Shown here: positions 23,954-27,139 of the stretch, in pieces
How positions within the stretch are numbered: the stretch's first letter is position 1
How the letters are laid out: each line of letters starts with the position of its first letter
NCBI RefSeq assembly: GCF_030013595.1
Contig: NZ_CP122768.1
Origin: Escherichia coli
GTDB taxonomy: Bacteria > Pseudomonadota > Gammaproteobacteria > Enterobacterales > Enterobacteriaceae
Strand: one strand, 5' to 3'
Length of the DNA: 64,000 nucleotides
Program-made: the position numbers and the translations under genes
Notes under the pieces: generated by a model
What the model saw: only the letters and a program-made list of their open reading frames with translations
What the model was told of the DNA's origin: nothing
Database searches by the model: none

Positions 23954-26900
23954 ATGAAAAGAATGTTAATCAACGCAACTCAGCAGGAAGAGTTGCGCGT
24001 TGCCCTTGTAGATGGGCAGCGTCTGTATGACCTGGATATCGAAAGTCCAGGGCACGAGCAGAAAAAGGCAAACATCTACAAAGGTAAAATCACCCGCATT
24101 GAACCGAGTCTGGAAGCTGCTTTTGTTGATTACGGCGCTGAACGTCACGGTTTCCTCCCACTAAAAGAAATTGCCCGCGAATATTTCCCTGCTAACTACA
24201 GTGCTCACGGTCGTCCCAACATTAAAGATGTGTTGCGTGAAGGTCAGGAAGTCATTGTTCAGATCGATAAAGAAGAGCGCGGCAACAAAGGCGCGGCATT
24301 AACCACCTTTATCAGTCTGGCGGGTAGCTATCTGGTTCTGATGCCGAACAACCCGCGCGCGGGTGGCATTTCTCGTCGTATCGAAGGCGACGACCGTACC
24401 GAATTAAAAGAAGCACTGGCAAGCCTTGAACTGCCGGAAGGCATGGGGCTTATCGTGCGCACCGCTGGCGTCGGCAAATCTGCTGAGGCGCTGCAATGGG
24501 ATTTAAGCTTCCGTCTGAAACACTGGGAAGCCATCAAAAAAGCCGCTGAAAGCCGCCCGGCTCCGTTCCTGATTCATCAGGAGAGCAACGTAATCGTTCG
24601 CGCATTCCGCGATTACTTACGCCAGGACATCGGCGAAATCCTTATCGATAACCCGAAAGTGCTCGAACTGGCACGTCAGCATATCGCTGCATTAGGTCGC
24701 CCGGATTTCAGCAGCAAAATCAAACTGTACACCGGCGAGATCCCGCTGTTCAGCCACTACCAGATCGAGTCACAGATCGAGTCCGCCTTCCAGCGTGAAG
24801 TTCGTCTGCCATCCGGTGGTTCCATTGTTATCGACAGCACCGAAGCGTTAACGGCCATCGACATCAACTCCGCACGCGCGACCCGCGGCGGCGATATCGA
24901 AGAAACCGCGTTTAACACCAACCTCGAAGCTGCCGATGAGATTGCTCGTCAGCTGCGCCTGCGTGACCTCGGCGGCCTGATTGTTATCGACTTCATCGAC
25001 ATGACGCCAGTACGCCACCAGCGTGCGGTAGAAAACCGTCTGCGTGAAGCGGTGCGTCAGGACCGTGCGCGTATTCAAATCAGCCATATTTCTCGCTTTG
25101 GCCTGCTGGAAATGTCCCGTCAGCGCCTGAGCCCATCATTGGGTGAATCCAGCCATCACGTCTGCCCGCGCTGCTCCGGTACCGGTACCGTGCGTGACAA
25201 CGAATCGTTGTCGCTCTCTATTCTGCGTCTGATCGAAGAAGAAGCGCTGAAAGAGAACACTCAGGAAGTTCACGCCATTGTTCCTGTGCCAATCGCGTCT
25301 TACCTGCTGAATGAAAAACGTTCTGCAGTGAATGCGATTGAAACTCGTCAGGACGGCGTGCGCTGTGTGATTGTGCCAAACGATCAGATGGAAACCCCGC
25401 ACTACCATGTGCTGCGCGTGCGTAAAGGGGAAGAAACTCCAACCTTAAGCTACATGCTGCCGAAGCTGCATGAAGAAGCGATGGCGCTGCCGTCTGAAGA
25501 AGAGTTCGCTGAACGTAAGCGTCCTGAACAACCTGCGCTGGCAACCTTTGCCATGCCGGATGTGCCGCCAGCTCCAACCCCAGCTGAACCTGCCGCCCCT
25601 GTTGTAGCCCCAGCACCTAAAGCTGCAACGGCAACACCAGCATCTCCTGCACAACCAGGGTTGTTGAGCCGCTTCTTCGGCGCACTGAAAGCGCTGTTCA
25701 GCGGTGGTGAAGAAACCAAACCGGCCGAGCAACCAGCACCGAAAGCAGAAGCGAAACCGGAACGTCAACAGGATCGTCGCAAGCCTCGTCAGAACAACCG
25801 CCGTGACCGTAATGAGCGCCGCGACACTCGTAGTGAACGTACTGAAGGCAGCGATAATCGCGAAGAAAACCGTCGTAATCGTCGCCAGGCACAGCAGCAG
25901 ACTGCCGAGACGCGTGAGAGCCGTCAGCAGGCTGAGGTAACGGAAAAAGCACGTACCACCGACGAGCAGCAAGCGCCGCGTCGTGAACGTAGCCGCCGCC
26001 GTAACGATGATAAACGTCAGGCGCAACAAGAAGCAAAGGCGCTGAATGTTGAAGAGCAATCTGTTCAGGAAACCGAACAGGAAGAACGTGTACGTCCGGT
26101 TCAGCCGCGTCGTAAACAGCGTCAGCTCAATCAGAAAGTGCGTTACGAGCAAAGCGTAGCCGAAGAAGCGGTAGTCGCACCAGTGGTTGAAGAAACTGTC
26201 GCTGCCGAACCAATTGTTCAGGAAGCGCCAGCTCCACGCACAGAACTGGTGAAAGTCCCGCTGCCAGTCGTAGCGCAAACTGCACCAGAACAGCAAGAAG
26301 AGAACAATGCTGATAACCGTGACAACGGTGGCATGCCGCGTCGTTCTCGCCGCTCGCCTCGTCACCTGCGCGTGAGTGGTCAGCGTCGTCGTCGCTATCG
26401 TGACGAGCGTTATCCAACCCAATCGCCAATGCCGTTGACCGTAGCGTGCGCATCTCCGGAACTGGCCTCTGGCAAAGTCTGGATCCGCTATCCAATTGTA
26501 CGTCCGCAAGATGTACAGGTCGAAGAGCAGCGCGAACAGGAAGAAGTACAAGTGCAGCCGATGGTGACTGAGGTCCCTGTCGCCGCCGCTGTCGAACCTG
26601 TTGTTAGCGCACCGGTTGTTGAAGAAGTGGCTGAAGTTGTAGAAGCCCCCGTTCAGGTTGCCGAACCGCAACCGGAAGTGGTTGAAACGACGCATCCTGA
26701 AGTAATTGCCGCCGCGGTAACTGAACAGCCGCAGGTGATTACCGAGTCTGATGTTGCCGTAGCCCAGGAAGTTGCAGAACACGCAGAACCGGTGGTTGAA
26801 CCGCAGGAAGAGACGGCTGATATTGAAGAAGTTGCCGAAACTGCTGAGGTTGTGGTTGCTGAACCTGAAGTTGTTGCTCAACCTGCCGCGCCAGTCGTCG

Positions 26901-27139
26901 CTGAAGTCGCAGCAGAAGTTGAAACGGTAGCCGCGGTTAAACCTGAGGTCACCGTTGAGCATAACCACGCTACCGCGCCAATGACGCGCGCTCCGGCACC
27001 GGAATATGTTCCGGAGGCACCGCGTCACAGTGACTGGCAGCGCCCTACTTTTGCCTTCGAAGGCAAAGGTGCCGCAGGTGGTCATACGGCAACGCATCAT
27101 GCCTCTGCCGCTCCTGCGCGTCCGCAACCTGTTGAGTAA
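23954..27139 (+). CDS. rne: Ribonuclease E
   Basis: ORF 23954..27139 (+), 1061 aa; S1/catalytic N-terminal half ([30 protein letters not shown]...), Arg-rich RNA-binding segment and acidic/Pro-rich low-complexity degradosome scaffold. Confidence 0.97.

Follow-up and report, generated by a model that had tools for sequence, protein, structure and literature searches.

A 560-codon open frame opposite the scaffold half of Escherichia coli rne is very probably a non-coding by-product of amino acid composition

The DNA analysed here is a stretch of 64,000 nucleotides from Escherichia coli (assembly GCF_030013595.1, contig NZ_CP122768.1), referred to as the window. Among the open reading frames (ORFs) listed between positions 23500 and 29500, rne, encoding ribonuclease E (RNase E), occupies 23954..27139 on the plus strand and specifies 1061 amino acids. 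This assignment is based on the ORF call, Pfam domains, and annotation. Within the protein, we detected S1 (residues 36-117), RNase_E_G (121-391), RNase_E_G_Thio (403-488), and PNPase_C (1022-1058). The families expected of RNase E (PF00575, PF10150, PF20833, and PF12111), covering the S1, catalytic RNase E/G, and thioredoxin-like (Zn-link/small) domains and the C-terminal motif, all scored above their cut-offs. The last of these, PNPase_C (E 1.9e-17), is the PNPase-binding C-terminal motif, encoded by 27017..27127 on the plus strand. Since this motif spans residues 1022-1058, function extends right up to the end of the sense frame. Upstream of rne, at 23593..23929, an Rfam search over positions 22500-28500 identified the rne5 leader. 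The gene order is flgK, flgL, rne, rluC, as in the equivalent neighbourhood of E. coli K-12, and flgL is convergent with rne. Hence, the locus resembles that of K-12 RNase E (rne, b1084), whose C-terminal part is a scaffold of the RNA degradosome, in having the same 1061 amino acids, domain set, and flgL/rluC surroundings. We found no difference from K-12 rne; the allele in the window is an ordinary one for E. coli. Furthermore, the segment 25445..27145 is 100% identical to that of E. coli strain HCP5S3_I2. In 10/10 E. coli genomes inspected, with PGAP or RefSeq annotation, rne is the only gene annotated at this position. We conclude that rne is the sole real gene at the locus.

Opposite the second half of rne, on the minus strand, is a TTG-initiated ORF of 560 amino acids, at 25445..27127. 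A preliminary description of this DNA had drawn attention to the frame, and the ORF listing returns it with identical limits. The ORF is in frame -1 with respect to rne (frame offset 0) and lies opposite rne codons 499-1061. Measured from stop to stop, the open span is 565 codons. Upstream, it is bounded by an in-frame TAA at 27143..27145 on the minus strand, just beyond the rne stop codon. At the other end, the sense TTA of Leu498 (25445..25447, plus strand) has, as its complement, the TAA that terminates the ORF. Note that, because the codon register with rne is exact, the antisense frame can be stopped only where rne itself has TTA, CTA, or TCA. There are 11 such codons in rne. The TTA of Leu498 is the last, with none after codon 498.

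Several shorter ORFs on the same strand had also been mentioned, and four are listed. These encode 132 (25218..25616), 89 (25450..25719), 112 (25698..26036), and 122 (26127..26495) amino acids, all on the minus strand and all contained in rne. Those of 132, 112, and 122 amino acids are in another frame than the 560-amino acid ORF; the first of these is non-coding. Comparing ORFs of at least 180 amino acids, the 560-amino acid antisense frame is the longest in the window to overlap another long ORF. The runners-up are 320 (9022..9984) and 293 (18078..18959) amino acids long. Hence, the presence of this frame, as noted in the preliminary description, is confirmed.

The stretch of rne facing the ORF (codons 499-1061; 25448..27136, plus strand) encodes the non-catalytic scaffold half of RNase E. 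Here, 70% of residues are Ala, Glu, Val, Pro, Arg, or Gln (14.7%, 14.6%, 11.9%, 11.2%, 9.9%, and 8.2%, respectively). Leu and Ser contribute 2.7% and 3.7%. Together, these make up 6.4% of the C-terminal half, compared to 17.2% in 47 other ORFs of the window. In absolute terms, 15 Leu and 21 Ser codons are present among 563, and none is TTA, CTA, or TCA. The preliminary description had attributed the open frame to a scaffold sequence that is both biased and repetitive. While the compositional bias is evident, repetitiveness is not the cause. Thus, Tandem Repeats Finder returned 0 rows for the rne C-terminal region, and we rejected DNA repetition as an explanation.

We suggest that the ORF arises as follows. 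In the mirror frame, antisense codons are simply the reverse complements of rne codons, and a stop is encountered only at TTA and CTA (Leu) or TCA (Ser). A scaffold half built mostly from Ala, Glu, Val, Pro, Arg, and Gln provides few such opportunities, there being 36 Leu or Ser codons in 563, and E. coli seldom selects TTA, CTA, or TCA from the alternatives available. Few Leu and Ser codons, and rare use of these three triplets, predict long open stretches (median about 240-300 codons). Having zero stops, the common E. coli allele then represents the lucky tail of this distribution, a chance outcome with 0.4-5% probability.

Simulations are in line with this suggestion. With the average composition of genes in the window, TTA, CTA, and TCA together occur at 2.71% per codon, and an open run of 563 codons has P of about 2e-7. 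We then redrew the codons among their synonyms, leaving the RNase E sequence unchanged, under three codon-usage references. Depending on the reference, the probability of a stop-free frame, given the rne protein, was 0.0035-0.048. Resampled runs of at least 563 codons arose with P of 0.0045 for window-gene usage, 0.020 for usage in the N-terminal part of rne, and 0.052 for whole-gene usage. The median longest simulated run, with the protein fixed, was 237-303 codons. Composition therefore lifts the probability of an open frame by four to five orders of magnitude. Hence, the open 563-codon frame is far beyond naive chance but only mildly unusual once composition is counted. We conclude that codon register, Leu and Ser poverty, codon bias, and some chance, rather than DNA repeats, are the cause.

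Scoring of coding potential on both strands had been proposed as a check. For this, codon log-odds, contrasting sense and mirror frames, were trained on the 47 other ORFs of the window. Read as rne, the C-terminal half scores +0.42 bits per codon, which falls within the 0.47 +/- 0.10 of the other ORFs. The antisense ORF scores -0.42 bits per codon. Equivalent dicodon scores are +0.83 for the sense frame and -0.83 for the antisense frame. Both measures favour the sense strand. The antisense product is rich in Arg (14.4%), Phe (13.3%), Leu (12.4%), Cys (4.6%), and Trp (3.2%). Conversely, it is poor in Lys (0.4%), Pro (0.5%), and Glu (1.1%). Compared against Pfam, the antisense product matched 0 families.

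A homology search with the antisense translation, the second check proposed, covered 5.8 billion proteins and returned 5 matches. All are the mirror frame opposite rne, and all come from assemblies with a disrupted rne. Match P0001 is from a scaffold in which a gap of 100 Ns interrupts rne. A related call, P0003, ends where the sense codon for Leu571 is TTA. Match P0002 is from a genome with a fragmented rne (11 gaps in the rne alignment), and P0005 is from another enterobacterial scaffold, which contains 100 Ns and ends inside rne. The remaining match, P0004, is a 760-amino acid protein named "ribonuclease E, partial". In its coding sequence, rne nucleotides 1-1728 run into nucleotides 2218-1652 of rne in reverse, a fold-back mis-assembly at a contig end. 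Because the mirror frame has no stops, the fusion remains open throughout. Since each match was traced to the strand opposite rne, we rejected the five as independent homologues; they are mis-annotations. The concern that this ORF might be mis-annotated was, therefore, justified. Where rne is interrupted, be it by a scaffold gap, by frameshifts, or by the end of a contig, gene callers do report the ORF as a protein, and have picked an alternative start, the ATG at 26695. The frame is mainly relevant to annotation hygiene; no non-genic ORF in the window is longer.

We examined how the frame behaves across species using a scan of one genome per species. This yielded 80 rne loci, 75 of which were usable, giving 76 sequences with the window allele included. 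Across the 76 sequences, the longest frame -1 run tracks GC3 (Spearman 0.87), and the combined frequency of TTA, CTA, and TCA drops with GC3 (-0.90). In several GC-rich genomes the whole of rne is open in antisense, including those of Pseudomonas entomophila (1,099 codons) and a Xanthomonadaceae MAG. Runs in AT-rich Pasteurellaceae and Alteromonadales are 70-130 codons. The resampling P-values, for the same 76 sequences, are spread out and not skewed low; the smallest is the value of 0.052 for the window. Hence, there is no general avoidance of stops.

Closest relatives are the more informative comparison for conservation. The rne gene of E. albertii is identical to that of E. coli in its N-terminal half and has 90% amino acid, and 86% nucleotide, identity in its C-terminal half. 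In E. albertii, five stops interrupt the antisense frame, at E. coli codons 554, 571, 594, 725, and 828. There are 3 antisense stops in Citrobacter werkmanii, 6 in Superficieibacter, and 5, 6, and 2 in three Enterobacter-labelled genomes. These stops of the Enterobacteriaceae (2-6 each) are scattered, at positions that mostly differ. Hence, close relatives of similar composition do not have a fully open frame. These relatives are decisive against conservation of the open frame.

Stops also segregate within E. coli. In a sample of 8 alleles, the frame is open in K-12 and five more full-length alleles. The others have a TCA, at codon 554 in LY180 and at codon 594 in strain 300490. To count carriers of individual variants, we used 55-mers centred on the variant base, such that every 28-base megablast word contains that base. 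Matches therefore come from carriers only. The A554S allele (TCA at codon 554) was found in 98/5,426 genomes, and the P594S allele (TCA at codon 594) in 1/5,426. A sense-synonymous change at Leu571, TTG>TTA, is carried by 167/5,426. Thus, a stop-creating allele, with full-length rne retained, is present in at least 167/5,426 E. coli genomes, while about 95% or more are open at the three sites checked. Among carriers of the Leu571 TTA, strain 2013C-4282 has an intact 1061-amino acid rne and antisense stops at codons 559, 571, and 828; its longest antisense run is 256 codons. Of the single-base changes possible in the C-terminal half, 2.0% of synonymous and 3.2% of nonsynonymous changes create an antisense stop. 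Hence, 2.1 stop-making changes are expected neutrally, for the 85 codons that vary among the 8 alleles, and 2 were seen. Selection for stop avoidance was rejected on both the cross-species and the within-species data. As an aside, the rne haplotype of LY180 is divergent, in the segment around codon 554.

These data bear on a different type of selection, acting on rne itself. Rare-codon avoidance, by which a long autoregulated mRNA would be translated efficiently, could have removed TTA, CTA, and TCA, with the ORF being an indirect product. All three are rare codons, and they account for 0/33 in the C-terminal half of rne versus 11/86 in the N-terminal half (Fisher p=0.033, for a boundary chosen post hoc). 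Furthermore, codon optimisation is held responsible for many frame -1 antisense ORFs in bioRxiv 10.1101/724807. However, besides being post hoc, the test gives p=0.17 once the bounding codon is added. In close relatives, whose C-terminal halves are similar, 2-6 such codons occur in this part of the gene, and E. coli strains tolerate TTA at both Leu571 and Leu828. In addition, the C-terminal codon score of 0.42 is not above the 0.47 of average genes. We consider it unlikely that selection on rne codons explains the missing triplets.

The pattern of substitution indicates which frame is under constraint. Within E. coli, 60/93 segregating sites in the C-terminal half are at position 3 of the sense codon. 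The 85 codons that vary include 53 with sense-synonymous changes and 64 in which the antisense residue is altered. Between E. coli and E. albertii, 203 C-terminal codons differ. Changes are sense-synonymous for 145 (71%), where 25% is expected at random, and antisense-synonymous for 36 (18%), where 23% is expected. The bases tell the same story, with 171/230 differences at sense position 3, which corresponds to antisense position 1. Hence, it is the rne frame that is under selection, with no sign of constraint on its mirror. In tests across E. coli, E. albertii, and other Enterobacteriaceae, we found neither conservation of the antisense frame nor purifying selection on it.

We conclude that the 560-amino acid ORF is, very probably, a shadow ORF. 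That is, it is a compositional by-product of the RNase E scaffold half, is non-coding, and is not kept by selection. The register, the composition, the non-conservation, and the substitution pattern on which we base this were each observed directly. The preliminary description had reached the same view, calling the ORF a compositional artefact, and codon scores, homology, non-conservation, and interrupted E. coli alleles bear it out. Some observations do count against a by-product. These are that complete openness is still a 0.4-5% event, the post hoc p=0.033, the mostly open frame of E. coli, and an AGGAG motif described below.

Some of these observations would suit a young gene. In this scenario, the ORF, or part of it, would be a gene or proto-gene that overlaps rne in antisense, is confined to E. 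coli, and is weakly translated. Most E. coli genomes, K-12 among them, have the open frame, and the conditional probability of such openness is only 0.4-5%. A Shine-Dalgarno-like AGGAG is located 10 nt upstream of an ATG at 27100 (codons 10/11), which is weak evidence in purine-rich sequence. Moreover, there are claims of antisense overlapping genes in E. coli, with pop/ompA, asa, ano, and laoB reported from EHEC. However, stops segregate in at least 167/5,426 genomes with intact rne, and E. albertii has five. Stop-making changes are in no shortage (2 versus 2.1 expected), and substitutions in the antisense frame are mostly amino acid changing. Neither the composition nor the codon usage of the frame resembles that of genes. 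In addition, a consensus scan of 26900-27450, upstream of the ORF, found no sigma-70-like site, with the proviso that weak signals could escape such a scan. In our literature search, no ORF or RNA antisense to rne came to light, and the overlapping-gene and antiparallel-ORF papers searched do not mention rne in their main text. A real gene here would overlap an essential gene by 1.7 kb, which would be extraordinary, and the evidence argues against this. We regard a young overlapping gene as highly improbable. Low-level translation of part of the frame in most E. coli, for instance from the ATG at 27100 or 26695, as a lineage-restricted proto-gene of very recent origin, is similarly hard to credit.

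Two terminator-like hairpins are found between flgL and the start of the antisense ORF. One, with a T-run, is just 3' of rne (27158..27181, plus strand). The other follows flgL, upstream of the ORF (27264..27292, minus strand). Minus-strand transcripts from flgL would need to read through the latter to reach the ORF. In the K-12 annotation, the FlgO sRNA is placed at the equivalent position. We infer that the antisense ORF is not expressed. Antisense transcription is widespread in E. coli. The minus strand might thus produce a functional non-coding antisense RNA that regulates rne, to which the ORF is incidental, and read-through from the convergent flgL could enter the region, but this is highly improbable given the two hairpins, the lack of a promoter-like site in 26900-27450, the Rfam search over 22500-28500 that found only the rne5 leader and nothing within the ORF, sequence change that follows the sense coding frame only, and a literature search that found no report of such an RNA.

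Antisense overlapping genes with experimental support include pop/ompA, asa, ano, laoB, and nog1 of E. coli O157:H7, and olg1/olg2 of Pseudomonas aeruginosa. Like these, the frame studied here is long and lies within an annotated gene, on the opposite strand. The O157:H7 and olg1/olg2 genes are claimed on the basis of RNA-seq, Ribo-seq, promoters, phenotypes, or purifying selection. In contrast, selection on the rne antisense ORF was tested and not found, and our consensus scan located no promoter-like site. Another parallel is with frame -1 shadow ORFs opposite dnaK, rpoB, and dnaA (bioRxiv 10.1101/724807; PLoS One 2012 e45103, PMC3454372). Shared properties are the exact register, stops restricted to TTA, CTA, and TCA, and a length set by Leu and Ser content together with codon bias. 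Note that the probability formula used for rne is that of bioRxiv 10.1101/724807, where the chance of an open frame -1 is (1-pLeu)^N_Leu x (1-pSer)^N_Ser. The same study concludes that selection does not act on most long antiparallel ORFs, and puts many of them down to avoided rare Leu and Ser codons. The rne case differs in that the main driver is the amino acid composition of a low-complexity scaffold (Leu and Ser 6.4%), rather than strong codon optimisation. Hence, rne is a clear case in which amino acid composition can yield a very long frame -1 ORF, codon bias not being the sole cause.

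Polymorphism of the rne C-terminal half, which encodes the scaffold region, is unusually high within E. coli. When window positions 25445-27145 were compared with 5,425 E. coli genomes, just 520 had identity of at least 99%, and the majority fell between 95 and 99%. Amino-acid variation is concentrated in the same half of the gene: in a sample of eight alleles it has 85 variable codons, 32 of them nonsynonymous, whereas the catalytic half has 53, of which 1 is nonsynonymous. Among the 5,425 matches to rne, five sit on plasmid-labelled records, which are probably mislabelled replicons or chromids. 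The urine isolate GN4738 (NZ_CM177114.1, rne at 110-2686) has an in-frame deletion of codons 743-945. The resulting RNase E is 858 aa long and lacks much of the scaffold region.

Three minority E. coli rne alleles create stops in the mirror frame, the antisense frame in exact codon register with rne. These alleles, TCA554, TTA571 and TCA594, are the codon states of the sampled E. albertii genome (L004). Ancestral polymorphism or recombination could be the source of the states common to both species.

Long overlapping frames are also found elsewhere. After the 560-aa antisense ORF, the next-longest overlapping ORFs in the window are of 320 aa (9022-9984, plus strand) and 293 aa (18078-18959, plus strand). 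The former corresponds to a stretch of 320 codons without TTA, CTA or TCA inside the gene at 9019-10452, which encodes 477 aa. In six GC-rich genomes (loci L036, from Pseudomonas entomophila, L040, L043, L047, L057 and L082) the whole of rne, spanning 933-1,099 codons, has no mirror-frame stop. The shadow ORFs in these genomes are approximately 1.7 to 2 times the length of that in E. coli.

One protein matching the antisense translation, P0004, is named 'ribonuclease E, partial' by NCBI (760 aa; GCA_001621075.1, LVRK01000076.1, 4001-6282; locus L092). The protein is chimeric, produced by a fold-back where the contig ends: RNase E residues 1-576 are followed by mirror-frame translation. The chimera reads through solely because the antisense frame is open.

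Upstream of the rne coding sequence, at 23593-23929 (plus strand), is a full-length Rfam match (260 bits) to rne5 (RF00040), the autoregulatory 5' UTR element of RNase E. Opposite the 5' UTR, a 124-aa ORF with a GTG start occupies 23499-23873 (minus strand). The K-12 annotation places yceQ (b1085, 'DUF2655 domain-containing protein') at this position. A search of the 124-aa ORF against current Pfam families gave no match at E≤0.01, and it may be a further questionable antisense ORF. At the other end of the gene, two convergent terminator-like hairpins lie between rne and flgL, at 27158-27181 (plus strand) and 27264-27292 (minus strand). The latter coincides with the FlgO sRNA of the K-12 annotation.
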